From: a virus
Length of the DNA stretch: 64,000 bases
Strand: one strand, 5' to 3'
IMG/VR virus record: IMGVR_UViG_3300037258_000352
Span: 40,287-104,286 of that record
The notes below the pieces were generated by a model that saw only the letters and a list, made by a program, of their open reading frames with translations, searched no databases and was not told the DNA's origin. Below, piece after piece: positions 244 to 49,179 of this stretch. Each line of letters opens with the position of its first letter. Within the stretch, counting starts at the first letter, position 1. A program made the position numbers and the translations under genes.

Positions 244-317
244 CCTCCGCGTCTACCGGCGTCCGCCACGCCAGTCTGTAATGTCACAAGACTACATCCG
301 TGGGTGGTGACCGTCAA
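244..317 (-). promoter_or_regulatory. Housekeeping-sigma promoter + hairpin + SD cassette
   Basis: TTGACG-N17-TAGTCT (317-289), hairpin CTGGCGT-GGCGG-ACGCCGG, GACGCGGAGG upstream of ORF 13..234. Confidence 0.7.
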
Positions 318-464
318 CGGTTACCGGGGAGGGTCCGAAGTCGATCGGACCGATCCGGATCCCCGACGGGTCCACCCCGTCCATCGCGGCGAGCTTGTCC
401 CGCATCGAGGTCAACACCTCAGCCAGGACCCGCTCCACACCCAACGAGACCTCACACCGGCACA

Positions 465-740
465 TCAGAGCAGCGCCAGCACGATCACCAAACAACCCAC
501 CACCATCAACGACACCGCGAACGTCGCCAGCATCGCCCGGTACTCCGCGCGCTTCACCGCGATCATCAGGTCCTCATCCGCTAACACCGTCGCCAACGCT
601 GCGGGGCCCTGCTCCACGACACCAACCGATCCACCCATGGTCAGGAACTTGGCCATCAACTCCGCTGCCTCCCGAGCAGTCCCACACCCCACAGTGAGGG
701 AGTCGGCCCCGTTTTTCGTTTCGACTGTGTAGCTCTTCAT
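465..740 (-). CDS. Hypothetical protein with C-terminal TM helix
   Basis: GACACGGAGG at 761-752; hydrophobic C-terminus; start could also be the TTG at 749. Confidence 0.6.
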   Translation of the reverse strand: MKSYTVETKNGADSLTVGCGTAREAAELMAKFLTMGGSVGVVEQGPAALATVLADEDLMIAVKRAEYRAMLATFAVSLMVVGCLVIVLALL

Positions 741-751
741 GCTGATCAATC

Positions 752-817
752 CCTCCGTGTCCTCGTTCCGCTGTGCCTTACATCCCGTATAATCGCGAGG
801 GCCGGCCCGGGTGTTAC
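752..817 (-). promoter_or_regulatory. ECF (SigD/ShbA-type) promoter + extended SD
   Basis: GTAAC(817-813)-N17-CGAT(795-792); GACACGGAGG 761-752. Confidence 0.75.
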
Positions 818-845
818 ACCCTGACCGGCCCTGGATTCCCGACGC

Positions 846-1352
846 TCACACCGCTTCGGAGGGTAACCCCGGGCCAGCGTGTTCGGTGAGGTATTCCCGC
901 CACGTCCAATCCAGTCGCCCGTTCCACAGACCGTCCTCGACGGTGGCGGTGGAGAACAACGCCGCCCGGCTCGCTGCGACCCGCCCGACCCGGAAGTAGG
1001 CGCCCTGCGGGTCGAACCCTTCCACTCGCAACGCCCGCCCCGCCGCTTCGAGCGCTAGCCACGCGTCCCGCAGCTCCGGGTACGCGATGGCGACCACCTC
1101 CCGCCGGCGGTCGAGCTCGACACTGCGGCGCGCGGACCGGAGGGCCTGCTCGGCTTGGGCGTAGGTCAGGGTCCATCCGGTAGCGGCTTTGACGTGGGAC
1201 CGCCCGAGGGTCATCACCCGACCGTCGGGGTTGACGACGTCGTAGAGGTGTTTCAGTGGCCGGCCGCAGTGGTCACACGACCCCTCGGTGTGCCGGATCC
1301 CCGTCAAATACCAAGCGCTGGACCCGATCTGCGCTGCTGCGGTGGGGCTCAT
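846..1352 (-). CDS. Hypothetical protein, CxxC/His putative Zn-binding N-terminus
   Basis: CDHCGRPLKH...GRSH; preceded by cassette. Confidence 0.7.
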   Translation of the reverse strand: MSPTAAAQIGSSAWYLTGIRHTEGSCDHCGRPLKHLYDVVNPDGRVMTLGRSHVKAATGWTLTYAQAEQALRSARRSVELDRRREVVAIAYPELRDAWLALEAAGRALRVEGFDPQGAYFRVGRVAASRAALFSTATVEDGLWNGRLDWTWREYLTEHAGPGLPSEAV

Positions 1353-1357
1353 GTCGT

Positions 1358-1428
1358 CCTCCGTGTCTCCGGGCCGGTCCGCTCCGGCCCTCTGACCTGT
1401 CTATCGCCGCCCGGGCGCGGTTCGTTAC
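1358..1428 (-). promoter_or_regulatory. ECF promoter + hairpin + extended SD cassette
   Basis: GTAAC(1428-1424)-N17-CGAT(1406-1403); GGGCCGG-AGCGGA-CCGGCCC; GACACGGAGG 1367-1358. Confidence 0.8.
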
Positions 1429-1775
1429 CGGTGCCTAAACCCCCGCTTCACCAGCGCGCTGGTAATCACCTGGTCCGTCTGGACGGCTTTCCGGGCCGCC
1501 GCCAGCGTCGGGTAAGGGCCCTGCTCAGGGTCGGTGGACCAGCAGATCCCCACCCACCACTGACCCTTACCTCCGGTCGCTACTCCGTCGGCGTCGCGTT
1601 TGGTGACGTACCCGCCGGTAGTGGACTCCGTCCCGGCCTGTAGCAACACCACCTCGTACAAGGGGTAGTCGGCCCGGGACACGCTGAACTCCCTCACCCG
1701 CAACCGCAGCGCGACAGTGCGCGCCTTGCGGGTTTTCGTGGTGGACATGGCCTCTCCCTGGTCGTTGGTGGTCAC
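1425..1775 (-). CDS. Hypothetical protein
   Basis: ORF in leftward operon; TAA stop lies within the next GTAAC box. Confidence 0.6.
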   Translation of the reverse strand: MTTNDQGEAMSTTKTRKARTVALRLRVREFSVSRADYPLYEVVLLQAGTESTTGGYVTKRDADGVATGGKGQWWVGICWSTDPEQGPYPTLAAARKAVQTDQVITSALVKRGFRHR

Positions 1776-1924
1776 GAGTTGCCGACGATGGTCACAGCGC
1801 CGGTGATGATCAGGGCCGCGACCACGACGAGTACCGCACCGGTCACACCGACGAAAGCGGCACCACCGACAGCAACCGTGACCGTGAGCCCAAGCAGGAT
1901 CAAAATCACGGCCATCGCGTGCCT

Positions 1925-1994
1925 CCTCCGTGTCTGGAGCGGGTCCGCACCCGCCCTACACACCTTGTATCGCTACCCGCCCCGCCGGTGTTAC
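1925..1994 (-). promoter_or_regulatory. ECF promoter + hairpin + extended SD cassette
   Basis: GTAAC(1994-1990)-N17-CGAT(1972-1969); GGGCGGGT-GCGG-ACCCGCTC; GACACGGAGG 1934-1925. Confidence 0.8.
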
Positions 1995-2224: not shown

Positions 2225-3388
2225 TCACTCCGATCCGGTTAGGGGCAGCACACCAGGCACGGTGGGTGCGAGGTCGCGCCGCAGTAGCACTCCGTTGGTG
2301 CGTCGTACTCGGGGGCGGGCCCGTGGTCGGGTGCCACTGGGCCGTGGCCCTTGCGGATCACGTTGCCCCGCCCGGGGTCCTCCCCGTCGCACAACTCCCG
2401 GTCACCACCGACGCCAGCGACGACCGCCCGCCATGGGGCCTGGGTCGCGATCCGTTCCACCCCGACCCGGCACCGTTGGCAAGACCCGAGCAGCGCGTCC
2501 CCCGCTGGGTCCGGTGCTGGCGTCGGTCGTTGCCGTGGGCGAGGTCTGCTAGCGACAACCGCCCGGGCGAGACCGATCACGCCGGCGTAGAACTCATCGG
2601 CCGGGCCCATCACGCGGTCGGATCACTGATCAGGCAGAGCGGGCAGTAATCCACACCGACCGGCACCGGTGTACCGCACCCGACGCAGTCGGCCAGCTTC
2701 ACCCACAATCGACATAGGTATCTCACGCCCTGCTCCCTCCTTTGTTGGGTCGGATCTCGAAACCGGACATGGCTAGCGCGTGGTGCAGTGCGACGACGTC
2801 CTCATCGAACATCACCGGCCACGGGCACCCACCGAGATTGCACACCGTCATCCCGTATCGGCAGGCTCGGTGACCCGACCGGATTTGCTCCACAACCTGT
2901 CGCAGCGCGGTCAGGCCAGCGTCCCCGGACATCAGAGCCACCCGTTCGCGAATCCGACCAGGGCCAGTTCGCGGTGCATCTTCACGATGGGCTCGGCTGC
3001 GTGGTCGGGGAGGATCCACTCCAAACCGGTGGGATCTACGGTCCGCCAGGATTCGGGGATCGCGTCGGCGACCTGCTCGAAATTGCGTAACCACACCTCG
3101 TGAGTGGTCATTTGCTTCCGTCCTCCGTGTCCCAGCCGGGTCCGTCGCCCGGCGCTCGCTACCTGCGTCATCCCCTGGGGAGGATCCGTGTCCTCTCGCG
3201 GTACTCATTGCAAATCCCGATGATCTGAGCGTCGCTGAGGTGTTGGACCACGCCGTGATCGGTGACCAATCGCCCCGCCGACTGCAAGATCTGTCGCATG
3301 ACAGCCGGGACCACAACCCGAGCTTTCTTCCCTTCCAGCGTGCGGTAGGTGACGAGGTGCTCAACCTCAGTGTCCGTGGACATGGGGG

Positions 3389-4138: not shown

Positions 4139-4147
4139 TCGTTTACT

Positions 4148-4254
4148 CCTCCGTGTCTGTGCTGGCCCGCACCAGCAACCCCCAGGGTAAACCTGGGTGG
4201 TCCCAGCGTCAACGCTTACAACCTGTGTATCGGCCGGGACCACCACCGCGTTAC
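4148..4254 (-). promoter_or_regulatory. Tandem ECF + housekeeping promoter, hairpin, extended SD
   Basis: GTAAC(4254-4250)-N17-CGAT; TTGACG(4212-4207)-N17-TACCCT; TGCTGG-TGCGGG-CCAGCA; GACACGGAGG. Confidence 0.8.
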
Positions 4255-12257: not shown

Positions 12258-12361
12258 GTAACGCCGGCTGGGGTGTGGCCGATACAGGGGTGTAAGCGTT
12301 GACACCCGCACACCACAGGTTTACTCTTGAGAGGTCGGTGCGGACCGACGGGACACGGAGG
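12258..12361 (+). promoter_or_regulatory. Tandem ECF + housekeeping promoter, hairpin, extended SD
   Basis: GTAAC(12258)-N17-CGAT; TTGACA(12299)-N17-TACTCT; GTCGG-TGCGGA-CCGAC; GACACGGAGG 12352. Confidence 0.85.
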
Positions 12362-13264: not shown

Positions 13265-13332
<68 letters not shown>

Positions 13333-13336
<4 letters not shown>

Positions 13337-13722
13337 ACCGTAAACCGTTCACCACCGACACCACTTTCCTGTTCGTTGACGGCCCCCCTGACGGCCGGAG
13401 GTTCCCGATCACCCTGGCGTGGTCACCGGAAGCACCGTTGGAGGTTTGGTTCCTGTTCCCCCACCCGCACCCGTGGTGGATGGTGTCCCGGGACCTCCTC
13501 GCGGGGGGCCTGACCACCGACGCTGGTCAGGGGGATGTGAGAGTCAGCCCGCACCGCCCGGCCGGTGTCAATATCGTGCTCCACGGTCGGCAGTTCAGTG
13601 TGGCGGTGAGGGTATCCCGCCGGATGTTGCGGGTGTTCCTGAACAAGACGTTTCAGCGGATCCCCGCCGGGCAGGAGGTGATCCCGGAGCTAGACCGCGA
13701 GTTACAGGAGCTGACTGGCTGA
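13333..13722 (+). CDS. SsgA-family sporulation/cell-division regulator
   Basis: PITLAWSPEAPLEV.F.F...W.VSRDLLAGGL...GQGDVRVSP...FLNKT...PAGQE. Confidence 0.9.
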
Positions 13723-13769
13723 CTAGTACGGAGTGACCACCGTAAATCAACGAACACGGAGGAGTCATC

Positions 13770-16268: not shown

Positions 16269-16331
16269 TTGACGGTATGTAGGTTGAAGTGTAGCCTTGA
16301 GGGAGTCGGTGCGGACCGGCAGACACGGAGG
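16269..16331 (+). promoter_or_regulatory. Housekeeping promoter + hairpin + extended SD cassette
   Basis: TTGACG-N17-TAGCCT; GTCGG-TGCGGA-CCGGC; GACACGGAGG 16322. Confidence 0.85.
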
Positions 16332-16486: not shown

Positions 16487-16527
16487 GCGCGGGTCTGACG
16501 GGGACCTGGGACACGGAGGACACGATC

Positions 16528-18457: not shown

Positions 18458-19104
18458 TCACAGAGAAAAGGGAGGACACGTCATGGTTTGGCCGCTGACC
18501 CCATGGGGTGCAGGACGATCACCGGACCGCCCTGCAGAGCCCACGCTCACCGAGTACGACGCCGCAAAGAACTCACCAGGAGTCACCTACGGTCGGGTTC
18601 GGGGCAACATTTTCACCGGGTACTGGTTGGAGCCGTCCGGACCGACCGGCGATTGAAATCGCCAGCAAGCAGCGACTGATTCAGACACGGAGGAAGAGAT
18701 GACACCGCTCGTAGTTCCCCCCGAAACCTGGGTGCGTATCCCCGGGTCCAACTTCGAGGTGTGGCACCGGCAGTACCGGAACGTGGTCATCACCGACCAC
18801 TACAAAGGAGCCCACGGTCTCGGTCTTCGGATCGTTCCCACGACAGGAGAACCAACCGATGCCTAGGAACCCGAGCCCTGACGAGGTCCACAACCAAATC
18901 CAGGAACTGGAAGGCCGGACGATGGAAGACCTCCGGGACAACTGGACACTGCAACCCGTCAACGACGAGGACTGACCCGATGCCGGGCGGGAGAAGCGAC
19001 GATGACGTCCACCCCGAACGGGAAGAAGGCAACGGGAAAACCGACAGAGGACCCGACCCCGACACCCAGGACGACCGGAAAACCAGCGACAACGGGAAAG
19101 GGAA

Positions 19105-24394: not shown

Positions 24395-24810
24395 GGTGTC
24401 CTCCGTGGTGGTTGGTGGTGGAGCAGTGGGAGCAGCCCCGCTGCTTCGAGTTCCGCTTTCTTCGCTGCGATGACCTCCGCGAGGTCCCGTTGCACCGGCC
24501 CGGGTGGTGGCGTGAGCACCGCGGACGGTGTGGCGTGTTTGTGGGGTCGCTGCGTCGCCCACGCGTGGATCAACGCGACGAGCCGGGCGGTTTTAGCGTC
24601 CACGGTGGTTTCCTCCTCCATAGGTGTTCGCGAGGAGATCCTCGACCTCCCGGGGGACGACGCCGGCGACGTGGTTGACGACGAACCGTGATAGCGCGAC
24701 CAGGACCCGTTGGGTCCGCGCGGCTTGCCGGGTCATCCCGATCACGAGGACCAGGTTCACGCCACCTACTAGGACCGTGACACCGACCACGAACAACGCC
24801 ATGTGCTGAC

Positions 24811-25125: not shown

Positions 25126-26020
25126 GGTGTCCTCCGTGTCATTCCCCGGTTTCGATGGTGATCATTCGAGGGCCGGATCCCCGCGTGATCCGGCCTTTCG
25201 TCACGAGCTCTTGGAGTTGGTAGGCGACGCTCGACGGGGAACTCCACCCGCCGGGCGTCGTCGTTACGGCCGGCGACCGCTGTCGCGTGGTGACAAGCCG
25301 CGTCTCTCGGTAAGCCGATCAGGTCGGGGTGCTCGATGTACTCGGCAGGGTAGTTCTCCCGGGCGTACACCCCACCCTCACGGTTCCGTTTCCACACGTG
25401 CATCAGCGCGGCGCCCTTGTCGAGGTCGCTCATCTGGTCCCACGGTGGCAGTCTGGACGCCTCTAGCCACTGCTTGGGGTGAGTTCCCCCACCGAGGCAC
25501 CGGTTCAGGCGGGGGCCGTGACCCAACAGGACCGGCATGCCGCGATTCTGCCGTTTCGCCCACGGCACGACCTGGTCGCACACGATGCACGCCCCGAACC
25601 CGAACTTGATCTCCCGATATGGCATTGCCGTCCTCCGTGTCTGCTGGTGAGCCGCTGCTACTCCTGGTCGCTTCCTCCGGTGGGGTCTGGTGAGTCGCCG
25701 AACGTTTCCTCGTACGTCCCGCCGCATCCTTCGCAACCCATGGTCACCTCCCCTCGGTCGGTTGGTCCCGTTCTGGTGAGTTACGCGTCGGTGTGGTGGG
25801 TGTCAGTCCTGGGTGGCCTCCTGGGGGTAGGCGATCGCGTCGGGTTGGTGGCCCTCGTCGAGGGACCGCTCAATGAACTCCTCGGGGGTTTCCCCGACGT
25901 GGCGGTGACCCGCGCCGTACTGGCCGCGACCCTCCGAACTCGTGCTGCGCATCAGCGTGATCTCCGTTCTGTGATAGTGGCCGGGCCGTGGGGCAGGCCG
26001 GGCCCGGCACGTGTAACCCG

Positions 26021-26253: not shown

Positions 26254-26321
26254 CCTCCGTGTCTCGCGGGGTCCCGTTGACCCTCACACCTATGTATCGC
26301 CGGGTCGGGCCCGGGTGTTAC
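26254..26321 (-). promoter_or_regulatory. ECF promoter + hairpin + extended SD cassette
   Basis: GTAAC(26321-26317)-N17-CGAT; GGGTC-AACGG-GACCC; GACACGGAGG. Confidence 0.8.
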
Positions 26322-26644: not shown

Positions 26645-26708
26645 CCTCCGTGTCTGGTTGGTCCGCACCAACACCCACAACACTACATGCGAGGGTACCA
26701 ACCGTCAA
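26645..26708 (-). promoter_or_regulatory. Housekeeping promoter + hairpin + extended SD cassette
   Basis: TTGACG-N17-TAGTGT; GTTGG-TGCGGA-CCAAC; GACACGGAGG. Confidence 0.8.
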
Positions 26709-31106: not shown

Positions 31107-31170
31107 CCTCCGTGTCGTTTGGGTCCCGCAACCCACCCATAAACCTACACCTACAGGTACTAGTGGGCAA
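31107..31170 (-). promoter_or_regulatory. Housekeeping promoter + hairpin + extended SD cassette
   Basis: TTGCCC-N17-TAGGTT; TGGGT-TGCGGG-ACCCA; GACACGGAGG. Confidence 0.75.
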
Positions 31171-31656: not shown

Positions 31657-31727
31657 CCTCCGTGTCGTCGAGGGCCCACCGCTGGGGCCGTACACCCATG
31701 TATCGAGATCCTGGTCCTGAGCGTTAC
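31657..31727 (-). promoter_or_regulatory. ECF promoter + hairpin + extended SD cassette, heads the operon with the RsdA-like gene
   Basis: GTAAC(31727-31723)-N17-CGAT(31705-31702); GGCCC-CAGCGGT-GGGCC; GACACGGAGG. Confidence 0.8.
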
Positions 31728-34125: not shown

Positions 34126-34193
34126 CCTCCGTGTCGTCCGGGTCCGTCACCCGGTGTCTACCTGTGTATCGCTGACCACCGACGGGGTGTTAC
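34126..34193 (-). promoter_or_regulatory. ECF promoter + hairpin + extended SD cassette
   Basis: GTAAC(34193-34189)-N17-CGAT; CCGGGT-GACGG-ACCCGG; GACACGGAGG. Confidence 0.8.
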
Positions 34194-35190: not shown

Positions 35191-35253
35191 CCTCCGTGTC
35201 TGCGGGTTCCGCAACCCGCCCTTGACGTTACACGTGGGAGGGGCCCGCGACAA
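35191..35253 (-). promoter_or_regulatory. Housekeeping promoter + hairpin + extended SD cassette
   Basis: TTGTCG-N17-TAACGT; GCGGGTT-GCGG-AACCCGC; GACACGGAGG. Confidence 0.75.
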
Positions 35254-35283: not shown

Positions 35284-35311
35284 TACTTGAGTAGCGGTAC
35301 TTGAGTAGCGG
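35284..35311. repeat. Perfect 14-bp tandem duplication TACTTGAGTAGCGG x2
   Basis: Read directly; abuts the stop codon of 35312..35932. Confidence 0.9.
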
Positions 35312-37327: not shown

Positions 37328-38358
37328 GCTGCACCGACCAGCAGCAGGAACCCGCACCCCACGATGACCCACAGGGCAACGGTCGGGGTGAACCACTCCG
37401 GGAGCTTCGCCGTCAGCCACGCATCGAACCGGCCGGTCATTCCGGAGTCACCACCCCGAATGGTGACCCCTCAGCGTGTGGTTCCAACGCCAACAGCGCC
37501 CGCCCAAGCTCGTGGGCCTCTGTGAGGGTCATCGACACCGCCGCCGCGCACCGCGGGGCCACGATCCCCACCCCCACGGTCCCGTCGCCGCGCATCACGA
37601 TCCCCAACGACCGCTGATCCGAGGTGACGCAATCCTCGGTGAGGGACGCCATCGACCACCGGTAGTGCCGGCCGTCGAGGAGCCAGTACGCGTCCGCGAT
37701 CCGGATCCCGGTGGGCTCGGTCATGACGAACCACCGGTGACCGGGTCCACCGTGACGGGTCTGGTCGTGAGCGTCACCGACCGGATCCGCCGGGACGGAA
37801 CGAGGACCTCCACGGAGTCCCCGGTCCGGATCGACACCACCCCGTCCGGGTCCCCGACACCGGTGAGGAGGTCCCCCCGCAGACCTTCGTACGCCGACGC
37901 GGTGTACGCATCCCACGGTGAGGTCAGGGCCCGGTCTCCCCACGTCCGTTCGATGACGATCTGGACTTCAACTGGTGGCAGCATCGGTCGCGGGGTCGTC
38001 ATCCCCGCGAACATTCTTGTGGTCATCAGTACTCCCTTCGTAGTGACGTGTTGCGGGTGTCGGCTTGATTCGCCGCGCGTGCTTGGAGATCCAGCAACAC
38101 CGGCGGGACCATTAGTGGAGCAACGAGCCCCGGTGCTGGCCCGTGGTGGCACCGGAACGGGGCGTGTTCTACTCTGATCACTGAGCGGGTCGGGTGTCCG
38201 CTCACGTGGCCCCACCGGGCCTGCCGCCTCCGCAGCGGATAGTGAACCGACACCCCCTGCTCAGGGCCTCCGGGTCGGTTTGGTGTTGGAAGATTGAGCA
38301 GCCCCCGAGGCGGCTCCTCCTCCGTGTCGCACCAAACCACCGGAGGCCCATCCCCGTT

Positions 38359-39490: not shown

Positions 39491-40405
39491 TCAGTTTCCC
39501 TCCGTGTCGTTACTGGTATCGAGTGCTCCGCTTTCCCACGCGTTCTCTAACCGCTTCTCCGTCCACCTCGGCAACGCTAGGGACACCACCCCCGCCGGGT
39601 ACCCGGGCCATACTCCGGTGCGGGTGCATTCCCGGTAGGTGTCGATCGCTTTCCGGTTCAGAACTCTCCCCCACTGGATCGCTTCCGGCTCGGGTTGCGC
39701 GACCCGTACTAAATAGGGGGGGTCCGACATTTGGAACACCAGCAGGAACACCACCCCCGCCGGTCCGACCAGACCGAGGGCCTCCGCGGCGTCGATGTAC
39801 CACGCGCCCTGCTGGGCGTAGCCGTAGGTCGCCATCGTTTTTTCCATCGCGGTGACGTCGACACCTACCGTAGTTTTATAGTCGCAGATGATCATCGGGT
39901 CGGTGTCATCACCGGGGATGACCAGGTCCAACCGGGCCCGCCGCCACACCTCGAACTCGTAGTCCACCCAGAACATCGACTGCTCCACCGCACCCCGACC
40001 TGGGTGGAACAGGGCACGGGCGTCGGGGTTCGCGCGGAGCACCGACTCCATTTCCCGGGTCCGGGCGTAGTCCCGGAGCAGCATCGGGACCCGGCCTGCG
40101 GCGTGCGCGAAGGCCTTCTGCTGCTGCGCGGCTTTGGTTTTCCAGTCGTCCGCGTCGACGACGACGATGGGGGACCCGACGCCGAGCATCCGCCAGTGCG
40201 CGGCGGTCCCGAAGTCCATCGCCTTGGTCCGAGGGCCGGTGCGGTGCCGCCAGTGATGGAACAACGCGGGGCACGACGGGGGCAGCAACCGGCGCGCACC
40301 TGATGACGACAGGGACCCACCCGGGACCAAGTCCCGGTGGTAGTCCTCATCGGTCATGTCGTACACACCGGGGGTGTCGATGATGACCTGCTCGACAGTG
40401 GTCAC
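39491..40405 (-). CDS. RecE/exonuclease VIII-like PD-(D/E)XK nuclease (DUF3799-like)
   Basis: LSSSG, FGTAAH, EQS.FW, RARLD, DYKT, YGY..Q.AWY. Confidence 0.9.
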   Translation of the reverse strand: MTTVEQVIIDTPGVYDMTDEDYHRDLVPGGSLSSSGARRLLPPSCPALFHHWRHRTGPRTKAMDFGTAAHWRMLGVGSPIVVVDADDWKTKAAQQQKAFAHAAGRVPMLLRDYARTREMESVLRANPDARALFHPGRGAVEQSMFWVDYEFEVWRRARLDLVIPGDDTDPMIICDYKTTVGVDVTAMEKTMATYGYAQQGAWYIDAAEALGLVGPAGVVFLLVFQMSDPPYLVRVAQPEPEAIQWGRVLNRKAIDTYRECTRTGVWPGYPAGVVSLALPRWTEKRLENAWESGALDTSNDTEGN

Positions 40406-41139: not shown

Positions 41140-41208
41140 CCTCCGTGTCTGCCGGTCCGCTACCGACGCTTACCGCATGATCCTACACCTGCACCCACTA
41201 CCTGACTA
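41140..41208 (-). promoter_or_regulatory. Promoter (weak -35) + hairpin + extended SD cassette
   Basis: TAGTCA-N17-TAGGAT; GTCGGT-AGCGG-ACCGGC; GACACGGAGG. Confidence 0.65.
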
Positions 41209-41468: not shown

Positions 41469-42227
41469 TCACCCGACGCCACCGAACGTGAGGACACCCT
41501 GCGACAGTCGGGCTGTCACCGCCCGTTCACACTGCGCTTCCCGCTTCTCGAACCCGATCGCACGCCGGCCCGTCGCTCGAGCTGCGACCAGCGTGGAGCA
41601 GCTACCAGCGAAGCAATCAAGGATCAGACCACCCAGTGGACAGCCGTATTCAATCAGAGGCTCAAGGATCCCCCGTGGCTTCTCAGTCTCGTTAATAGCG
41701 GTGCCGTGCATGGATCGTGAGTAGATGACCGAGCCCATCATGCGAGGACCACCGTTGTGACTCACATAGGAACCAGAGTCGATGTGCCCGGTGTGGGCCG
41801 GTTGTGCCTTGCGACGGACCTGCTTCTTGACTGCATCCTGCGTCGTTGGGGCGAGATGGTGAACGTCCGACCACGGACCTCGGTACCAGTGCGTTGCGTG
41901 CTCATGCATTCGCCGGAATCGGTCAGCGTGGAACGTTGACCCGTTGTGCTTCTCCCACACCACGTCCTGCGAGAACTTCCAGCCCGTGAACTCATCCCGC
42001 CTATCGAGGAACATCCGCATCGACCCGAAACACCACATCGAGTTCCCCGGGATCAGCGACGGCCACCCAGCGGGCCACCGGTCCCAATCCAGACTCGTCT
42101 CCCCGTACGGGGGATCACACACGGTGAGGTCCGGGACGATCCCCAACTCGGGGAGGATGTCCCGGAAGTCCCCGCAGTACAACGTGACCTCGTCGTCGGC
42201 GTAGTAGGGCTCCGGGCGGGTCACCAT
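41469..42227 (-). CDS. DNA N6-adenine/N4-cytosine methyltransferase (beta-type)
   Basis: DPPY, TEKP, LDCFAGSCST. Confidence 0.9.
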   Translation of the reverse strand: MVTRPEPYYADDEVTLYCGDFRDILPELGIVPDLTVCDPPYGETSLDWDRWPAGWPSLIPGNSMWCFGSMRMFLDRRDEFTGWKFSQDVVWEKHNGSTFHADRFRRMHEHATHWYRGPWSDVHHLAPTTQDAVKKQVRRKAQPAHTGHIDSGSYVSHNGGPRMMGSVIYSRSMHGTAINETEKPRGILEPLIEYGCPLGGLILDCFAGSCSTLVAARATGRRAIGFEKREAQCERAVTARLSQGVLTFGGVG

Positions 42228-44614
42228 GGTTGCCCGATCCCTATCCGGGCGTACTTCCCCACGAACGACAGCCGCACGTCCCCCGTCGGCCCGTTCCTAT
42301 GTTTGTCGACGATCACCGTGATGTCCTGCGGTTCGTCATCACGACGCCACAGCAACAGGATCTTCGACGCGTTGTGACCCACCGCGCGGGACTCCCGCAG
42401 GTCCTCCTTCGTTGGCCGGCCACCGATCCGTTTCGTCGGCTCCGAGTTGAGCTGATGCAACACCACGATCGGGCACCCGAGCTGCTTCGCGAGCTCCTTA
42501 AGCTCCCACGACAACCGCGACAACTGCTCCTGCCGGGACACCTTCGGATCCGCCGGCGACATCAACGACAACTGATCCACCACCACCAACCCCGGGTGCC
42601 CCAACTGCTGACACCGCGCCCGGATCTGCGCCACAGACAACCCGGGGGTGTCATCCACCCACAAGGGCCACTCCTGAATCCGCTCCGCAGCTTTCTTCGC
42701 CCGGTACTGATCTTCCGGTCCGAGCTGGTGTTCCATCAGATCCGACAGGGGGACGGTGCCAACGTCCGCGACCCACCGGGCCATGACCTCATCCGTCGTC
42801 ATTTCCAGGGTGAACATCACCGTCCGGACCCCGTCTTGGGCCGCGGCCCGCGCGATCGACCCCCCGAACAGGGAGTTGTGCGTAGGGATCATCGTCGGCC
42901 CTGCGAGGTAGAGGTGATCACTGTTGTCGACCTCGATACACCGCACGGGGACGCTTGCCACTGGCCGGACCGCGCGAATCATCCTGCGGGATGACCGCTG
43001 TGGGGCTCTCTGCCGCTCTACTTTCCTGGTTAGTTTGAAGACTTTGTCTCCGGGCGTAAAATTGATCATGTAGCAGGTTGAGGACTTCTCCGTCCTGCCT
43101 TTGACCCGTTTGGTTCGCATGGTGGCTCGGTACCCAAGACTCAGGATCAGTTCTAGAGTTCCCTCGGCCAGCACCTTGCTGGTGACAGCGAACTGGACCT
43201 TTCCTAGTTTGCAGACATACCCGTCGGTGTCTAGTAGCCCGGCTAGTAGCTCCCGGCGTTGTCCTACAGACGCCCGCAGGTAGGCGACCGGAATGTGTTT
43301 GTTCATCACTAAACCGGCGCGCCTTAGATCTGTGATCAGTCCATAGACTGTCCTATGGGGACACGTCCTCACTGCTTTCCCGATGGGTGGCCCTACTTCA
43401 TAACCGCAGAACGAGATGTTGTCGAACACTTCTGGATCAGCGCCGCACATCGTCCCATGCAAGGAATCACCGTCTCCGAGCCAGCAACCCAACACATAAG
43501 GATCTATCGGGAGATCTTCCGACTCGGGTAACTCCAACGGAGCTGCCAGCTTGACCGAGTGGTTGACGTATGTCCCGAATCGGAGCGTCGCCATGATCTG
43601 CTCCGTCGTCACCACTGAGGGATGGATCTGCTTCCACCGCTGGTCGATGGAATAAGGGGAGGTCCTGGCCAGGGTGTTATCAACGTGGGTGCATCGTGAA
43701 GATCGTGTCTCCGTCAGCCACTGGTGATCTGCGTCCGCTACGAGCACTGATCCGTCAGAGAACTCCACCTCATAGCAGGGACGACCCGTCATCACCGGGG
43801 TCGCGTTCGTGACCGTGGTCGGTTTGCCGTCCGCTCCGAACACTTGGTCGCCTACCTGAACCGTGCCCATGGTCGTCCAACCTGTCGGCGTGGCCAGGGG
43901 CGTATCCAGAGCGAGAGCCTTCCCGACGCTGGTGTTGGCTGCGACGACGATCAGCTCACCGATCCGCAACCCCCCGGAGAGTTGCTCATCGAGCGCTGGC
44001 CACGACGTTTTCACGACCCCCACCGGAGGCCGGTCCAACGACTCAATGAACGACCACACCGCCGGCTCCGCATGCACCAGCGTCTGCGACTGGTCCCGGG
44101 ACGTGGTGGCGTCGGTGAACTCCCGGCGCGCGAAGTCCAACACCTCATCCAGCGACGCGCCTTTCGACCCGTGCTCCGCGAGTTGAGTGATCCGCAAACC
44201 GGCCTCCCGGACCCGCCGCAGCACAGCTTTCGCGGCGACGATCTCCGCGTAGTAGGTGACGTTCGCGGCGGTGGGAGTGGCTTGCATCAGGGTGTGCAGG
44301 TACGGGCCGCCCCCCACCCGCAGGAGCTCACCACGCCGGTCCAACTCCTCCGACACGGTCACAGGGTCCGCGGGTTCCCCGCCCGCCCACAACGCCGTCA
44401 CAGCAGCCCAGATTTGGCTGTGACCGGGCCGGTAGAAGTCTTCCGGGGTCAACACCCCGGCGACGTCGTCCAACGCCCTAAACGACACCAGAACCGACCC
44501 GAGGACCGCTTGCTCCGCGTGGAGGTCCTGCGGTGGCTGGTTGTCCAGCTCGGGTTCGCCCTCCTCGCTCGGGGCGTCGTCCCATCCGGAGGTGTCAGCG
44601 GACACCGGGAACAC
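42221..44614 (-). CDS. dnaB: Replicative DNA helicase DnaB with intein
   Basis: PPQDLHAEQAVLG, AANTSVGK|S, FTLEM, VVDQL, QLN, DLRES, KHRNGP. Confidence 0.95.
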   Translation of the reverse strand: MFPVSADTSGWDDAPSEEGEPELDNQPPQDLHAEQAVLGSVLVSFRALDDVAGVLTPEDFYRPGHSQIWAAVTALWAGGEPADPVTVSEELDRRGELLRVGGGPYLHTLMQATPTAANVTYYAEIVAAKAVLRRVREAGLRITQLAEHGSKGASLDEVLDFARREFTDATTSRDQSQTLVHAEPAVWSFIESLDRPPVGVVKTSWPALDEQLSGGLRIGELIVVAANTSVGKALALDTPLATPTGWTTMGTVQVGDQVFGADGKPTTVTNATPVMTGRPCYEVEFSDGSVLVADADHQWLTETRSSRCTHVDNTLARTSPYSIDQRWKQIHPSVVTTEQIMATLRFGTYVNHSVKLAAPLELPESEDLPIDPYVLGCWLGDGDSLHGTMCGADPEVFDNISFCGYEVGPPIGKAVRTCPHRTVYGLITDLRRAGLVMNKHIPVAYLRASVGQRRELLAGLLDTDGYVCKLGKVQFAVTSKVLAEGTLELILSLGYRATMRTKRVKGRTEKSSTCYMINFTPGDKVFKLTRKVERQRAPQRSSRRMIRAVRPVASVPVRCIEVDNSDHLYLAGPTMIPTHNSLFGGSIARAAAQDGVRTVMFTLEMTTDEVMARWVADVGTVPLSDLMEHQLGPEDQYRAKKAAERIQEWPLWVDDTPGLSVAQIRARCQQLGHPGLVVVDQLSLMSPADPKVSRQEQLSRLSWELKELAKQLGCPIVVLHQLNSEPTKRIGGRPTKEDLRESRAVGHNASKILLLWRRDDEPQDITVIVDKHRNGPTGDVRLSFVGKYARIGIGQPW
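42875..43918 (-). mobile_element. Class 3 intein (348 aa) with LAGLIDADG homing endonuclease in the DnaB P-loop
   Basis: Starts ALALDTP, HQW (block B), VRC (block F), PTHN|S; LGCWLGDG and LAGLLDTDG motifs. Confidence 0.92.
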
Positions 44615-45248: not shown

Positions 45249-45265
45249 GATCGTTGTCCTCCGTG

Positions 45266-46204
45266 TCAGTAGTTCATCGGCGCGTCATACGCGTCGTCCG
45301 CGAGGTGCTCGAAATGCCGCGCGTAACCTCCGCTACCCCGCCTATCGCTGCCCGAGCGCCCAGCGTTACCGACCGTGGCCGGCTCGTCCTCCCACCGCTG
45401 CCCGTTGAGCCACGTCGTCGCGTGCGCCACGTAGGACCCCGTCCGGTGCAGCTCCACGACGTACCGATCCAACCCAGCCATGATCACATCCGGGTCGGCT
45501 GCCTTGATCGCTTTCGGCCACGCCTTCCACGCGTCCTTCTTGGCCGTCTTTCGGGGGTAAACCGCCCAGAACTTGGCGAAGGTTTCCTCGGCTTTGCGGT
45601 TGATCGGGACAACCGGCCTAGACGAGGTCGGTGAGGGCATCCCGTCCAGCGTTCCCTGTCCGTCCTGGCTGGGGTTGGCCTGCGCCGCGCGCGCGGGTGC
45701 GCCTACGCGTGTGTGCGCCCGCGCCCGTGGAGAGATGATCTCTTCGTTAGAAGAGATCAAGGGGTTAGTGGTCGGTTCCACTGGTCGGTTAACTTCAAAA
45801 GAGTCTTTGGCCGGCTCAGCAGGTGAGCCGGGGGGGGCCTGCAGGTGAGCCGGGGGGGGCTCAGGGATGGACCGGGGGGGGCTCACCTTTGGTGGGAGCG
45901 TCGAAATGTGGAAGTTCCACCCGGCGAGCCCCCCGTCACTTCTGGTCCGGGCGGTCTTCGCGACGACGTTGATCTCTTCCAGTTTCACCATCGCTCGTTT
46001 GTAGGAGGAGACGCTGAGGCCGGCTCGTTCAGCGACCGCTTCTCGGCTGGGGAAGCAGTCACCGCCGCTGTCGGCGAAGCTGCGGAGCGCGATGTAGACG
46101 CGGAGACTGGCGCCGTCGAGGTCGTATTGGAGTAGCCAGATCGGGATGATCGAGTACGGGCCGATGTCTGTGGTGACCCGGGAGTTCTCTTGCTGTTCGC
46201 TCAT
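45266..46204 (-). CDS. Phage replication initiator (N-terminal wHTH)
   Basis: CFPSREAVAERAGLS; F..FW.VYPRK..K; WLN..RWED. Confidence 0.85.
   Translation of the reverse strand: MSEQQENSRVTTDIGPYSIIPIWLLQYDLDGASLRVYIALRSFADSGGDCFPSREAVAERAGLSVSSYKRAMVKLEEINVVAKTARTRSDGGLAGWNFHISTLPPKVSPPRSIPEPPPAHLQAPPGSPAEPAKDSFEVNRPVEPTTNPLISSNEEIISPRARAHTRVGAPARAAQANPSQDGQGTLDGMPSPTSSRPVVPINRKAEETFAKFWAVYPRKTAKKDAWKAWPKAIKAADPDVIMAGLDRYVVELHRTGSYVAHATTWLNGQRWEDEPATVGNAGRSGSDRRGSGGYARHFEHLADDAYDAPMNY
45740..45886. repeat. Iteron-like repeats plus AT-richer tract, probable replication origin
   Basis: CCGGGGGGGGC at 45828, 45850, 45872 (22-bp period); GCAGGTGAGCCGGGGGGGGC twice; TTAACTTCAAAAGAGTCTTT adjacent. 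Confidence 0.75.
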
Positions 46205-46884: not shown

Positions 46885-46975
46885 GACGCCACCGTCAGCG
46901 AGGAGGCGTTGGATGGGATGGTCGTGGACATGTGGTACGTTTCCTTTACTCAGTTCTCATTGATTGGCATGGATG

Positions 46976-47001
46976 GAAGCGGCCCCGTGGCAGGGCCGCT
47001 T
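46976..47001 (-). terminator. Hairpin downstream of sigma gene
   Basis: AAGCGGCCC-TGCCACG-GGGCCGCTT. Confidence 0.6.
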
Positions 47002-47017
47002 TCGTCGTTTCAGGGGC

Positions 47018-47668
47018 TCACGCCACCACCCCCACGTCCTCGTGGAGCCATGACGCAGCGTCGTCGGGGAGTAGCTGAGCGAGACGCCTGATCGCCCTGT
47101 GCTGCAGCGCTTTCACGGCACCGTCGTTGCGGTTCAATGCCGCTGCGGTCTCCGTGACGGACAGGCCAGCGTAGAACCGTAGGCCGATGCAATCCCGCTG
47201 GTCTCTGGGTAGTTTCCGGAGACACGTCGTGAGGTGCTGGGCGTAGAACTTGGTCATGATCCGGCTGATGGCTTCGCCGGCGGTGTTTTCTTCCGCGTAC
47301 CGTTCGGGGACTTTGTCGACGGTCCGGTCCCAGCGGTGTCTCGCTGATCGGACGTGGTCGAGGAGGAGGTTCCGGGCGATGGTGACGACCCACGCACCGA
47401 ACTCTTTCCCGTTGCCACGGTCAGCGACGGATTGGATCCTCCGCAGTGCGCGGCACCACACTTCACCGGCCATTTGCTCGACGGTGGAGCGGTCGCGGTC
47501 GTCGAGCCGGTAGAGGAGGTACCGGTAGATCATCAGGTGGTGTCGTTCGTACAGGACGCTGAAAGCGTCGCGGCCTGTGTCGCCGCCCTGCTGGGCGAGG
47601 GTGACGAGTTCCCAGTCCCCGAGTGGGGCGTTGTCCAGTACGTTTACTGTCGATGGCTGAGCGGTCAT
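47018..47668 (-). CDS. ECF sigma factor, BldN-like
   Basis: RALRRI...FGAWVVTIARNL..DH..S.R.R; LRFYAGLSVTETA...NDGAVKALQHRAIRRLAQLLPDD closely matches BldN as recalled. Confidence 0.9.
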   Translation of the reverse strand: MTAQPSTVNVLDNAPLGDWELVTLAQQGGDTGRDAFSVLYERHHLMIYRYLLYRLDDRDRSTVEQMAGEVWCRALRRIQSVADRGNGKEFGAWVVTIARNLLLDHVRSARHRWDRTVDKVPERYAEENTAGEAISRIMTKFYAQHLTTCLRKLPRDQRDCIGLRFYAGLSVTETAAALNRNDGAVKALQHRAIRRLAQLLPDDAASWLHEDVGVVA

Positions 47669-48207
47669 CGAACGATGCTCCTTCTGTGTCGGTTCTCCCC
47701 GCGGGCAGCGGGCCGGTATCGGTTAGGGGTTTCGAGGGGGACCAGTCGCGAGCTGGTCCCCCTCGCATGTGTCGGGATGGTTACCGCCCGTGGTTGGGAC
47801 GGTGAGCCCGGTCATGGAGTGGTGGGCCCGGGCGGTGTGGTGCCGGCCGTAGATGCACGTGGACCCGTCGGGGAGTTTGAAGTCGCAGTACTCCCCGCGC
47901 ATGGTGGGGGTGCCGTGCCCGAGTCGGGCCAGCAGCACGGTGATCACGGTCGCGGCGCGTTCGGCGTTCCATGCGGGGGTGGTTTTGTCGTCGGGTGAGT
48001 CCCACGCGTTGTCGAGGTCGTACAGCCACGAGGAGATGTCCTCGGCGAGGTCCGCTCGGGTAGCGGGGTCGATGAACGGGCTGAACGCGGCGGTGGCCAC
48101 TTCCTGCCCGGTCGGGCATTCCCACGCGTCGCCGTGGACGCGTGACTTGACGTGACCGAGCGCGCGGCACACCGCGGCGGTGGCCTGCTGGTGGATGTGC
48201 CGGGGCC

Positions 48208-48879
48208 TCACCATGCCACCTCGTGCTCAACGGTCCACCGCTGGTAGGTGGGCAGGGTGTAGGTCACGTCGGGGCAGGAGCGGGACAGGTCCACTGTGCT
48301 CGGGAACACGGCGACGTTGTCGGGGAAATCGGTGGCCACGGGGACAGGGTCCTCGCTGGGGTTGATCAATAGCAGCTCACCTAACGCGATGAGTTCCACC
48401 ACGGCGTCGGCGATGGGTTCAAGGTCGGCTTCGGTGTGCTGTTGGCCGCGTGCGACGTTGTCGCTGGTGTTGTTCCACAGGTACGTGTATCCGGGCCACG
48501 GCGCTGGTTCGAGGTCGGCCGCTTCGTCCCACGCGAGGTTCAACAACACTTGGCGGGCCAGGCCAGTCGCGCGGGAGTAGGCGAACACCCACTCGAACAC
48601 GTTCAGCGGCAGCCCAGTGCGGGCCTCGATCTGACGGTCGGCGAGGGTTTCCGCAGTGCACAGGATCGTGCCGTGGTGTTCGTCGTGGCGGTAGCAGTCG
48701 AGGCCCGGGTCCCACACCCAGTACCGCTGGAGGTGGTCGGTGTGTGTTTGGGGCCAGATAGCCGTAACCCCGGACTGGTCGGGGGACTGGTCCGGGGTTC
48801 GTGCTGATGCGGTGGCCCCAACGACGGGACGACAACCGTCGCTCAGCGTACCGGATGGTGGGGGGGTCGTGTGGGGCAT
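48208..48879 (-). CDS. Protein with initiator-type wHTH domain
   Basis: WVFAYSRATGLARQVLLNLA...ELIALGEL. Confidence 0.65.
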   Translation of the reverse strand: MPHTTPPPSGTLSDGCRPVVGATASARTPDQSPDQSGVTAIWPQTHTDHLQRYWVWDPGLDCYRHDEHHGTILCTAETLADRQIEARTGLPLNVFEWVFAYSRATGLARQVLLNLAWDEAADLEPAPWPGYTYLWNNTSDNVARGQQHTEADLEPIADAVVELIALGELLLINPSEDPVPVATDFPDNVAVFPSTVDLSRSCPDVTYTLPTYQRWTVEHEVAW

Positions 48880-49003
48880 GTGTGCCTCCTGGTTGTCGTG
48901 TTGTTCGGCCCTGCGGTCGAATTGCGTCGTTGGGTGGTTCCCCCCGGCGGGCATCACTCCGCAGGTTTGGTCACGTTACACCGTGAAGTCTTCCGCTGGG
49001 TAT

Positions 49004-49029
49004 ATCGCCCGCGAAGTTTTGGACGTTAC
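49004..49029 (-). promoter_or_regulatory. ECF promoter heading the leftward sigma/replication block
   Basis: GTAAC(49029-49025)-N17-CGATA in the divergent intergenic region. Confidence 0.7.
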
Positions 49030-49112
49030 TCCCCGCAGTCGATCACCACGCGCCGTGACATCACGCGCGCTGCGGAACCTCAGGTCACCGGGGACCCACA
49101 GCCGCCGGATCG

Positions 49113-49179
49113 TTGACGGGTGACCCGTTGGGTGTACGGTGGTGGGGTTGGTAGCGGACCAACACCCCTGACACGGAGG
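49113..49179 (+). promoter_or_regulatory. Housekeeping promoter + hairpin + extended SD cassette
   Basis: TTGACG-N16-TACGGT; GTTGGT-AGCGG-ACCAAC; GACACGGAGG 49170. Confidence 0.75.

Follow-up and report, generated by a model that had tools for sequence, protein, structure and literature searches.

A start-associated sequence and its upstream stem-loop, best read as an RNA-level leader module for 27 non-structural genes of an actinobacterial phage

The 10-mer GACACGGAGG, together with the stem-loop found in front of most of its copies, is best read as an RNA-level leader module for 27 non-structural genes. The complete phage genome (104 kb) holds 27 exact copies, 24 of them in the window, the whole 64,000-nt stretch analysed here, and three more at 214, 3559 and 13858 bases before its start; shuffled windows hold 0.62 on average and three at most. 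All 24 copies located by the first-pass annotation were recovered (Table 1), and the variants it gave at 244, 13753 and 24400 are real and start-associated. The distribution is sharply peaked, with 27 exact copies vs. 18 with one mismatch, the latter mostly away from starts, and there are only three to four start-associated variants. As had been noted, the sequence is always on the coding strand, i.e. that of the downstream gene (27/27), and is absent from the window past 49179. A start codon (ATG, GTG or TTG) follows within 14 nt in 25 of the 27; the start is ATG in 21 of these 25 assigned genes, vs. 61% of all genes. Of the other two, the copy at 49170 serves a 21-codon upstream ORF and that at 38319 is followed by no ORF.

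The GGAGG of GACACGGAGG is a perfect Shine-Dalgarno (SD) core. The remaining GACAC was said to lie outside the region of anti-SD pairing, and indeed the 3' end of a Pseudonocardia 16S rRNA is ...GGAUCACCUCCUUUCU, with a UUUCU tail that cannot pair with it. Among the 5-mers preceding GGAGG in 324 NNNNNGGAGG words, GACAC occurs 27 times and the runner-up five; the start sequence is constrained sequence-specifically beyond the SD. The junction before GACAC is also biased, to A (12/27) or CA (10/27).

A stem-loop with a stem of 5-8 bp lies 1-6 nt 5' of the start-associated sequence (SAS) in 18 of the 27 exact copies genome-wide, as against 6 of 137 genes that lack an SAS and 7% of positions drawn at random (Fisher p = 1e-12). 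Within the window, hairpins stand at 15 exact sites and at the variant at 244; the number annotated earlier (about 14) was an undercount. The canonical form is absent from nine of the 27, and the hairpin is thus not obligatory. In a genome-wide scan every intergenic, gene-sense hairpin with these loops adjoins an SAS, and a covariance model built from eight copies recovers 10-11 more, every one at an SAS site. The loops converge, as claimed: they read GCGG (8), AGCGG(A) (4), GACGG (2), AACGG (2), GGCGG, CGACGGA and CAGCGGT (1 each), and RCGG is kept in 19 of 19.

Table 1. Leader elements and promoter-like sites in the window (loops in square brackets; promoter-like sites are pattern matches with a presumed function)
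Position	Strand	Feature	Context
244..275	-	variant SAS GACGCGGAGG + hairpin ACTGGCGT[GGCGG]ACGCCGGT	GTG 9 nt downstream, 73-aa gene
289..317	-	class A, TTGACG-N17-TAGTCT	upstream of leader at 244
752..761	-	SAS without stem	AGCGGA retained upstream; gene 465-740
790..817	-	class B, GTAAC-N17-CGATTA	
1358..1390	-	hairpin GGGCCGG[AGCGGA]CCGGCCC + 3 nt + SAS	ATG 5 nt downstream, 168 aa
1401..1428	-	class B, GTAAC-N17-CGATAG	
1925..1956	-	hairpin GGGCGGGT[GCGG]ACCCGCTC + 2 nt + SAS	47-aa gene
1967..1994	-	class B, GTAAC-N17-CGATAC	
3122..3153	-	hairpin GCCGGG[CGACGGA]CCCGGC + 3 nt + SAS	operon-internal; upstream stop 13 nt before
4148..4177	-	hairpin TGCTGGT[GCGG]GCCAGCA + 2 nt + SAS	nucleoside deoxyribosyltransferase-like gene
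4184..4212	-	class A, TTGACG-N17-TACCCT	class B site further upstream, from 4254
12299..12327	+	class A, TTGACA-N17-TACTCT	-10 hexamer 6 nt before hairpin start
12334..12361	+	hairpin GTCGGT[GCGG]ACCGAC + 2 nt + SAS	ATG 10 nt downstream, 140 aa
12869..12878	+	SAS	behind different G/C hairpin without RCGG loop
13246..13255	+	SAS without hairpin	18-nt gap to upstream gene; SsgA-like gene
13753..13762	+	variant SAS AACACGGAGG	ATG 7 nt downstream
16269..16297	+	class A, TTGACG-N17-TAGCCT	
16305..16331	+	hairpin GTCGGT[GCGG]ACCGGC + 1 nt + SAS	46-aa gene
16490..16519	+	hairpin CGGGTCT[GACGG]GGACCTG + 1 nt + SAS	operon-internal; immediately past upstream TGA
18684..18693	+	SAS without canonical hairpin	
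24400..24409	-	variant SAS ACCACGGAGG	ATG 5 nt downstream
25131..25140	-	SAS without adjacent hairpin	9-bp hairpin, ACGCGG loop, 30 nt upstream
25632..25641	-	SAS without clear hairpin	AGCGG upstream
26254..26283	-	hairpin GGGTC[AACGG]GACCC + 5 nt + SAS	
26294..26321	-	class B, GTAAC-N17-CGATAC	
26645..26672	-	hairpin GTTGGT[GCGG]ACCAAC + 2 nt + SAS	GTG 9 nt downstream
26680..26708	-	class A, TTGACG-N17-TAGTGT	
31107..31135	-	hairpin TGGGTT[GCGG]GACCCA + 3 nt + SAS	ATG 6 nt downstream, 345 aa
31657..31689	-	hairpin GGCCC[CAGCGGT]GGGCC + 6 nt + SAS	
31700..31727	-	class B, GTAAC-N17-CGATAC	
34126..34154	-	hairpin CCGGGT[GACGG]ACCCGG + 2 nt + SAS	
34166..34193	-	class B, GTAAC-N17-CGATAC	
35191..35219	-	hairpin GCGGGTT[GCGG]AACCCGC + 1 nt + SAS	
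35225..35253	-	class A, TTGTCG-N17-TAACGT	
38319..38328	-	orphan SAS without start codon	opens ~300-nt structured stretch without convincing ORF
39499..39508	-	SAS; no room for hairpin, being inside upstream gene's 3' end	upstream PD-(D/E)XK nuclease gene; 376-aa gene downstream
41140..41167	-	hairpin GTCGGT[AGCGG]ACCGGC + 1 nt + SAS	MarR-type HTH protein gene
45258..45267	-	SAS overlapping upstream gene's end	downstream gene DnaC/IstB-like
49113..49140	+	class A, TTGACG-N16-TACGGT	
49147..49179	+	hairpin GTTGGT[AGCGG]ACCAAC + SAS	GGGG/CCCC extension possible
49187..49252	+	21-codon ORF behind SAS 49170	TGA overlaps GTG (49249) of rightward operon's first long gene

The stems, described earlier as differing yet paired, number 16 distinct 5' arms among 19 hairpins, a fixed loop on a free stem being the pattern expected of a loop that is recognised. 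The covariance check proposed in the first-pass annotation gave no refutation: paired cells make up 98.1% of the stem alignment vs. 62.5% when shuffled, two-sided changes occupy 32 cells vs. 9.6, and covariation scores 0.80 vs. 0.17 (0 of 500 shuffles reach this value), figures that are somewhat inflated, since pairing was the first criterion for choosing the hairpins and the model served to fit the alignment, and that come, like all other evidence on the leader, from copies within a single genome. Five of six pairs covary, seven cells are G·U and only two unpaired, and the signal collapses once the partner columns are slid. The structure is an RNA structure, of the sense strand.

We tentatively prefer, with somewhat less than even confidence, to see the leader as a two-part RNA operator for a putative trans-acting factor. 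One such factor would read both the hairpin loop, displaying R-C-G-G(-A), and the start sequence, displaying a single-stranded A-C-G-G-A some 16 nt downstream. The likeliest candidate is a small RNA-binding protein encoded by the phage, either a dimer or two-domain; it would control translation because one contact sits on the ribosome-binding site, and thereby set the mRNA lifetime of the whole gene set jointly, whether by shut-off or by activation. RCGGA is common to loop and start sequence, and the distance from CGG to CGG is 14-19 nt (mean 16.05, sd 1.5), with stem and spacer compensating in length, the shorter stem having the longer spacer (Spearman -0.50, p = 0.03). The two-site RNA operator proposed earlier thus stands as to covariation and the shared RCGGA (16 ± 1.5 nt apart) and falls short as to its binder: a Pfam scan of ~95 ORFs of the non-structural region found no RNA-binding domain, and neither RegA, bS21 nor DUF3310 was found in the complete phage genome.

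The chief alternative, which we consider possible but on the unlikely side, is a leader acting only in cis to stabilise the mRNA and drive translation. Here a short GC-rich stem-loop at the extreme 5' end of the transcript would shield it from decay that depends on that end (RNase E, RNase J, RppH-type enzymes) and insulate the perfect GGAGG and ATG region from sequence further upstream, with no dedicated factor. The mRNA of ompA in E. coli is stabilised by 5'-terminal stem-loops, and B. subtilis and phage SP82 likewise have 5' stabilisers. Such a role fits the preference for ATG and the perfect SD core, and also the position of the hairpins, 15 of 19 being promoter-proximal and beginning on or close to the +1 predicted for two classes of promoter-like sites, which are pattern matches with a presumed function; conversely, 15 of 16 promoter-proximal SAS carry a hairpin. 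It starts 3-7 nt past the -10 hexamer in class A, approximately at the predicted +1, and 7-11 nt past CGATAC in class B. The leader is found behind a sigma-A-like and an ECF-like promoter class alike. More speculatively, the NUDIX hydrolase encoded by the phage, if RppH-like, would favour transcripts with paired 5' ends. However, the conserved RCGG loop and exact GACAC would be superfluous in a stabiliser, and the compensating lengths hold the loop-SAS distance. Four hairpin-SAS units are operon-internal, directly past a stop codon, so that the hairpin is more than a feature of transcript 5' ends. Nor is the SD predicted to be more accessible (0.46 in SAS genes vs. 0.41 in other GGAGG genes, p = 0.5), and an open ribosome site alone therefore fails to explain the design. 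The same internal junctions, the two promoter classes and the leader preceding the rightward operon with the terminase gene make the earlier label of "early genes" too narrow.

The four units past stop codons, and the A/CA bias before GACAC, would also suit an RNA processing signal, in which an endoribonuclease cuts between hairpin and GACAC, leaving the hairpin to protect the 3' end of the upstream message and giving downstream messages a uniform 5' end, or else inactivates them by a cut within GGAG in the manner of RegB, whose target in T4 is GGAG within the SD of early genes. We regard this as improbable: the complete phage genome has no RegB homologue, no nuclease candidate was identified, and most units are already 5'-terminal, where cutting would be purposeless. 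It would be more surprising still if a phage transcription factor recognised GACACGGAGG as double-stranded DNA, the overlap with the ribosome site being incidental. The many intergenic copies are asymmetric and all oriented with transcription, in which they resemble the stoperators of cluster A mycobacteriophages, likewise asymmetric and in one orientation, and the phage does encode several HTH proteins, of which the MarR-like one has an SAS of its own, the others being XRE/DUF5753, MerR-like and HTH_36. But 25 of 27 copies show SD-type spacing to a start codon and all include the SD core, the linked hairpin with variable stems and G·U pairs is RNA and not an operator in DNA, a DNA site of 10 bp, five of which the SD already dictates, would be short, and neither type of integrase was found in the phage.

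This is a soil phage of actinobacteria. It probably infects a sporulating actinomycete akin to the Pseudonocardiaceae, and the leader module is not a host motif: the leader model finds only scattered single weak matches (29.9 bits at most) in 121 Pseudonocardiaceae genomes, nowhere multi-copy, and of the 11 best examined most lie in coding-looking sequence with no start codon nearby, none of them close to a homologue of any phage-encoded protein. CsrA itself is an unlikely binder, and that a true host-supplied CsrA/RsmA targets the leaders is very improbable, despite short hairpin loops that carry GGA or GGG, two sites 16 nt apart and ACACGGAGG(A/G) within the known consensus, for the search for CsrA-like proteins suggested earlier found none in the complete phage genome (E <= 10) or in the three Pseudonocardia genomes whose prophage terminases are nearest, and only three of 81 Pseudonocardiaceae genomes have one above the Pfam cut-off, the other 78 lacking it.

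If the two-part operator is real, 27 non-structural genes would be controlled together after transcription. The published RsmE/CsrA consensus is (A/U)CANGGANG(U/A), which ACACGGAGG of the phage leader fits; this fit, with the shared RCGGA at a constrained distance, makes a two-site operator at the RNA level reasonable. Among known elements, those nearest in kind are the SAS/ESAS (start-associated sequences) that cluster K and EF actinophages carry.

All 24 exact copies of the 10-mer start-associated sequence (SAS), GACACGGAGG, that the first-pass annotation had placed in the window are present at their positions (0.62 expected), and the complete phage genome holds 27. Every one of the 27 lies on the coding strand, that of the gene downstream, and in 25 a start codon follows within 14 nt, with GGAGG, the core of the Shine-Dalgarno sequence (SD), inside the motif; 21 of these 25 starts are ATG, vs. 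61% for genes overall. One copy, w38319 (named, like the others below, for its start position in the window), has no ORF, while w49170 serves an ORF of just 21 codons. The 27 exact copies compare with 18 that have one mismatch and are mostly not at starts, and only three or four variants are start-associated. Of the genome's 324 GGAGG words, 27 have GACAC before them and 5 the next most frequent 5-mer. The 3' end of a Pseudonocardia 16S rRNA reads ...GGAUCACCUCCUUUCU, so that GGAGG is the SD and GACAC is unable to extend the pairing: opposite UUUCU it could form at most one A-U and one G·U pair, which bears out the earlier statement that GACAC lies outside the anti-SD region. All but one of the 27 copies fall between genome positions 36.7 and 89.5 kb, in the non-structural part, the remaining one being at a small leftward gene within the structural block. 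The evidence here and below comes throughout from copies within one genome.

Under a test that called for a stem of at least 5 bp and a CGG-containing loop, ending no more than 9 nt before the motif, a hairpin precedes 18 of the 27 exact SAS, vs. 6 of 137 other genes and 7% of random positions (p = 1e-12). With two variants counted there are 19 canonical hairpins, which have 16 different 5' arms; each stem position is occupied by three to five kinds of standard pair, and RCGG is present in all of the loops (GCGG in eight, AGCGG(A) in four, GACGG and AACGG in two each, and three one-offs), the top of the stem often being GGU[GCGG]ACC. A covariance-model check of these leaders, proposed on first reading, was carried out, and the stems do covary. 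In the model-fitted alignment of the 19 copies 98.1% of cells are paired vs. 62.5% when shuffled, both-side changes are seen in 32 cells vs. 9.6 in shuffles, and the covariation score of 0.80 (vs. 0.17 shuffled) was reached by none of 500 shuffles; these absolute figures are somewhat generous, since the hairpins had been selected for pairing and the alignment was made to fit the model, a selection bias of which the contrast with other genes is free. The covariation signal is lost when partner columns are slid by one to three. G·U pairs occupy 7 cells of the alignment and 2 are unpaired, counts that fit a stem of sense-strand RNA rather than of DNA or the opposite strand. When the eight copies with a GCGG loop were made into a covariance model, it picked up the remaining copies across the genome without any further notable hit, and in a genome-wide scan each intergenic, gene-sense hairpin with such a loop precedes a start sequence; hairpin and SAS form one unit. 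The partner element of the SAS in this phage is clearly an RNA hairpin, with covarying stems, sense-strand G·U pairs and a loop that alone is conserved.

The unit runs, in order: promoter, 3-13 nt, stem-loop, 1-6 nt (usually A or CA), GACACGGAGG, 5-10 nt, ATG. Two classes of promoter-like site lie upstream at fixed distances, promoters and transcript starts both being inferred from sequence patterns. Class A, TTGAC(A/G)-N16-17-TAnnnT, has seven pattern matches upstream of SAS and two further, looser ones, at w31107 and w41140, read by eye; class A sites were not called by a generic sigma-70 scanner and matched only the actinobacterial TTGAC-N17-TAnnnT form. Class B, GTAAC-N17-CGATAC, runs directly into the leader at eight sites and lies upstream of a class A site at two more, while 7 of its 17 sites in the genome run into leaders of other types. 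For most of class A the stem starts 3-7 nt past the -10 hexamer, which would put the hairpin at the very start of the transcript; as judged by promoter patterns only, 15 of the 19 hairpins are within a few nt of the predicted start site, and four are operon-internal. These four, with their SAS but no promoter, stand directly after the stop codon of the upstream gene. SAS with no hairpin are mostly at junctions too short for one, or within the end of the upstream gene. Loop and start sequence have R-C-G-G-A in common, with a CGG-CGG distance of 14-19 nt (mean 16.05, sd 1.5), and the spacer is longer where the stem is shorter (rho = -0.50, p = 0.03).

The table below collects further features. 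Among these, the palindrome beside the XRE/DUF397 pair may be an operator, the stretch behind the orphan SAS might represent a structured non-coding RNA, or else a decoy for the SAS reader, of whatever kind, and the arrangement at the last SAS looks like translational coupling through a leader peptide.

Positions of features in the window, or in L121, a stretch of the phage DNA that reaches before the window
Feature	Position	Strand	Remarks
Cation-efflux (CDF) protein	L121:15785-16432	-	Host-like cargo behind SAS
NUDIX hydrolase	L121:18239-18712	-	1288-1761 bases before window; E = 4e-25
Class B sites, GTAAC-N17-CGAT(A/T)(C/G/A/T)	starts 817, 1428, 1994, 3458, 4254, 12258, 26321, 31727, 34193, 36039, 45369, 49029		Five more before window; 17 in genome
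Perfect 6+4+6 palindrome	12300-12315		TGACAC CCGC ACACCA against TGGTGT GCGG GTGTCA; overlaps -35 of class A promoter for leader at 12352; in divergent intergenic region beside XRE/DUF397 pair
SsgA-like sporulation/division protein	13270-13722	+	Host-like cargo behind SAS; N-terminal (TQ)n repeat
RsdA_SigD_bd-like protein, weak	31174-31416	-	E = 3e-4, below Pfam cut-off
Tandem direct repeat, TACTTGAGTAGCGG x2	35281-35310	+	Intergenic gap
Stretch of ~300 nt with no convincing ORF	38030-38345	-	Between 376-aa gene and next gene; begins with orphan SAS, its GGAGG paired in long-range stem; MFE -151 kcal/mol, z = -3.6; three CGGAGG motifs; no Rfam match
DnaB-like helicase	42221-44614	-	Gene interrupted by LAGLIDADG/homing-endonuclease intein
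ECF sigma factor	47018-47668	-	Phage-encoded
21-codon ORF, MPDIRTRIHGEPPMAESEGGR	49187-49252	+	Behind last SAS (w49170); its TGA overlaps GTG of 321-aa gene, the first long gene, which opens rightward operon containing TraG/VirD4-like gene and terminase

The virus record is complete (104,286 bp, 66% G+C, with repeats at its termini), and its last 64,000 bases are the window. At genome positions 1-36 kb and 89.5-104 kb the genes are large and rightward, with the terminase gene in the second stretch, and from this layout we take the two to be the structural and packaging block; small genes on both strands fill the intervening 53 kb, all gene calls being those of a home-made codon-usage model. 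Pfam recognises DnaB with its intein, a DnaC/IstB-like protein, a PD-(D/E)XK nuclease and DNA methylases, the ECF sigma factor and weak RsdA-like fragment, and SsgA-like, WhiB, XRE/DUF397 pair, NUDIX hydrolase and cation-efflux proteins. SsgA, WhiB and DUF397 together point to a sporulating actinomycete as host. The nearest prophage terminases are from Pseudonocardia (42-44% identity); closer relatives, at up to 89%, are metagenome proteins only, some of them labelled Pseudonocardiaceae. The one at 89%, P0002, is encoded on a 107-kb contig, the relatives having been found as proteins only; further terminases among them are P0012 (69% identity, 92 kb), P0022 (55%, 96.5 kb) and P0026 (52%, 100.6 kb). 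Inteins (PF14890) also occur in several of the relatives' terminase homologues. To any phage in the collection searched the terminase is at best ~35% identical, and tblastn with DnaB and terminase found relatives at no more than 38% identity.

The unit was also searched for elsewhere. By covariance model, 121 Pseudonocardiaceae genomes (including one unpublished genome, G090, with two weak matches, on which alone no claim is made) gave only scattered, weak, single matches, and the hairpin-SAS module is thus not a host motif. Megablast of the window DNA found no match in the phage or plasmid collections; terminase-based locus searches of viral, metagenome and genome collections reached at most 57% identity, mostly on short contigs or structural-gene flanks, and no SAS; and IMG/VR pattern scans for loop plus SAS gave single chance matches, in none of which is the hairpin/start architecture present. 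An unrelated viral contig, L064 (IMGVR_UViG_2897178995_000004; 58% G+C), carries three copies of a 26-nt repeat, (T)CTGCGGACGGG(A/G)CGGACACGGAGG, that contains the 10-mer and is not obviously start-associated. Rfam gave 0 matches at gathering score over the whole window and sub-threshold noise only around 38.0-38.4 kb, the exact 10-mer was found in the literature only in unrelated primers and aptamers, and no RNA sequencing runs are listed as holding the phage sequence. Identical fragments are present in two soil sequencing runs, and run X4 holds a variant diverged by ~2-4%; among the differences listed there, at a depth of ~5, the leader at 26645-26708 has none, and one nucleotide is deleted just 3' of the SAS at 41140, where the gene begins with tandem ATGs; no weight is put on this comparison.

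As to how the unit works, the mechanism we favour, tentatively, is an RNA operator read by a trans-acting factor: one factor would touch both the hairpin loop and the ribosome site, and translation of the gene set would be controlled through it. Together, several observations speak for a single factor that recognises the RNA: GACAC is exact, the loop is conserved on a stem that is free, RCGGA occurs twice, the distance is held, and some copies lie inside operons. That it is a small phage protein which runs a CsrA-like, CsrA-independent post-transcriptional regulon in this actinobacteriophage is possible, if rather doubtful. Such a protein, dimeric or built of two domains, would act as a clamp on the RCGG(A) loop of the 5' hairpin and on ACGGA, the latter contact being inside the ribosome-binding site 16 nt downstream of the former, and would switch translation of ~27 early and middle genes together, on or off. 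Counting against any factor, no RNA-binding protein was recognised among the ~95 ORFs, and neither CsrA, RegA, RegB, bS21 nor DUF3310, the last proposed as possibly linked to SAS (PMC11373665), was found in the phage. Ranking by pI gave no obvious candidate binder, and the ESM Atlas no informative family for two Zn-ribbon-like SAS-led proteins. A phage antisense sRNA pairing with the SAS is not supported, since complements of the SAS of at least 9 nt occur only within the SAS loci themselves; Pseudonocardia 16S rRNA, which lacks UCCGC, offers nothing complementary to the loop, nor to the extended SAS.

The main rival to a trans-acting factor, somewhat unlikely in our estimate, is that the leader acts in cis only, as a 5' stabiliser and insulator; the 15 hairpins close to promoters would fit this, as would a strong SD followed by ATG. 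The 5'-terminal stabilisers of E. coli ompA, B. subtilis and phage SP82 have a hairpin at or near +1 followed by a strong SD, as the predicted start sites would give for those 15 here, but theirs have no conserved loop and do not occur 19 times per genome, whereas four of the hairpins here are operon-internal. Predicted SD accessibility at SAS genes is not above that at other GGAGG genes, which weakens a pure "open ribosome site" reading. Speculatively, the NUDIX hydrolase, if RppH-like, could give an advantage to phage transcripts that have their 5' end hidden within the leader hairpin.

A signal for RNA processing is improbable. T4 has both an endonuclease, RegB, that cuts GGAG in early SDs and a translational repressor of many early mRNAs, RegA, and these share the logic of the proposed operator, in which one phage factor would work on the ribosome-binding regions of an entire pre-late gene class; their sites, in contrast, are loosely defined and A/U-rich with no obligatory hairpin, and homologues are absent here (RegA, PF01818, and RegB, PF10715, gave no match in the phage at E <= 1). 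More improbable again is a stoperator-like DNA site. The stoperators of cluster A mycobacteriophages are also asymmetric and intergenic, ~25-30 in number and oriented with transcription, but they are 13-14 bp DNA sites for an immunity repressor and not SDs, whereas in the present phage, which yielded no integrase, the SD itself forms the site.

The first-pass annotation had proposed an operator for an RNA-binding protein and pointed to the two GGA sites of CsrA/RsmA targets, and that two-GGA layout stands. As in CsrA/RsmA leaders, a GGA lies in a short hairpin loop and a second GGA site overlaps the SD, the spacing is in the dimer-bridged range and the sequence fits the consensus; loop RCGG(A/G) and SAS ACGGA are 14-19 nt apart, and the loop and SD GGAs of CsrA/RsmA target sites 10-63 nt. 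The loops, however, are RCGG(A/G) and not ANGGA, the A often being within the closing pair, and the CsrA protein is missing: the lack of a visible gene, noted earlier for the window, extends to the complete phage genome, in which no CsrA-family protein (PF02599) was found. The search for CsrA-like proteins suggested for the host was run in the likely host family, where such proteins are rare: true CsrA genes (83-84 bits) are present in only 3 of 81 sampled Pseudonocardiaceae genomes (G016, G030 and G079), and in none of the three Pseudonocardia genomes that carry the nearest prophages. To our knowledge the Actinobacteria are largely without CsrA, Hfq and ProQ, and the phylum of the Pseudonocardiaceae is usually said to lack CsrA. 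CsrA proper is thus an unlikely binder, and a regulon of true CsrA the least probable of the explanations, very improbable indeed.

The kinship with cluster K start-associated sequences that was suspected on first reading holds on every point compared. SAS are known from cluster K mycobacteriophages (Pope et al. 2011, PMC3203893) and cluster EF Microbacterium phages (PMC7302621), and their role was still called unknown in 2024 (PMC11373665). The likenesses are a short asymmetric repeat in 10-19 or more near-identical copies, in ribosome-binding position and one orientation, in the non-structural half of the genome and with ATG preferred, conserved beyond 16S rRNA pairing and often behind intergenic gaps with promoters. 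By all of these the feature is of the SAS kind, itself known; what sets it apart, more than its sequence, is the partner element. The sequences differ, GACACGGAGG here vs. GGGATAGGAGCCC in cluster K and GGGAAAGGACCCC in cluster EF, and here there is no GGG...CCC frame and there are more copies (27). A vague "role in translation" gives way to a specific two-site model that mutations can test, with RCGGA in the loop and RCGGA on the SD. If the doubtful clamp by a small phage protein should prove true, it would be the first mechanism for SAS, which have gone unexplained in actinophages since 2011; should there be a binder, Actinobacteria and their phages would have in it a global translational regulator of a new, RNA-binding kind. 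As a compact, promoter-independent cassette, the 45-nt module would also serve for expression or control in high-GC hosts.

Cluster K also has a second, promoter-linked element, the ESAS, directly upstream of about half to two thirds of its SAS, as here. The ESAS is a conserved sequence of ~46 bp comprising a SigA-like promoter and an imperfect inverted repeat of 15-17 bp, and departures from that repeat lend no support to pairing in RNA, on which account its authors prefer a DNA-binding protein (PMC3203893, PMC11373665). The partner in clusters K and EF thus looks like a DNA promoter or operator, and any action of the SAS on RNA is left open there. An ESAS of the cluster K type was considered for the present element and rejected: the 19 hairpins have 16 arms, they lie downstream of the promoter, and the promoters are of two classes. 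In this phage the upstream element stands between promoter and SAS, and its free stem sequence, compensatory pairing and conservation of the loop alone mark it as an RNA hairpin, in whose loop the core of the start sequence occurs a second time, a fixed distance away.
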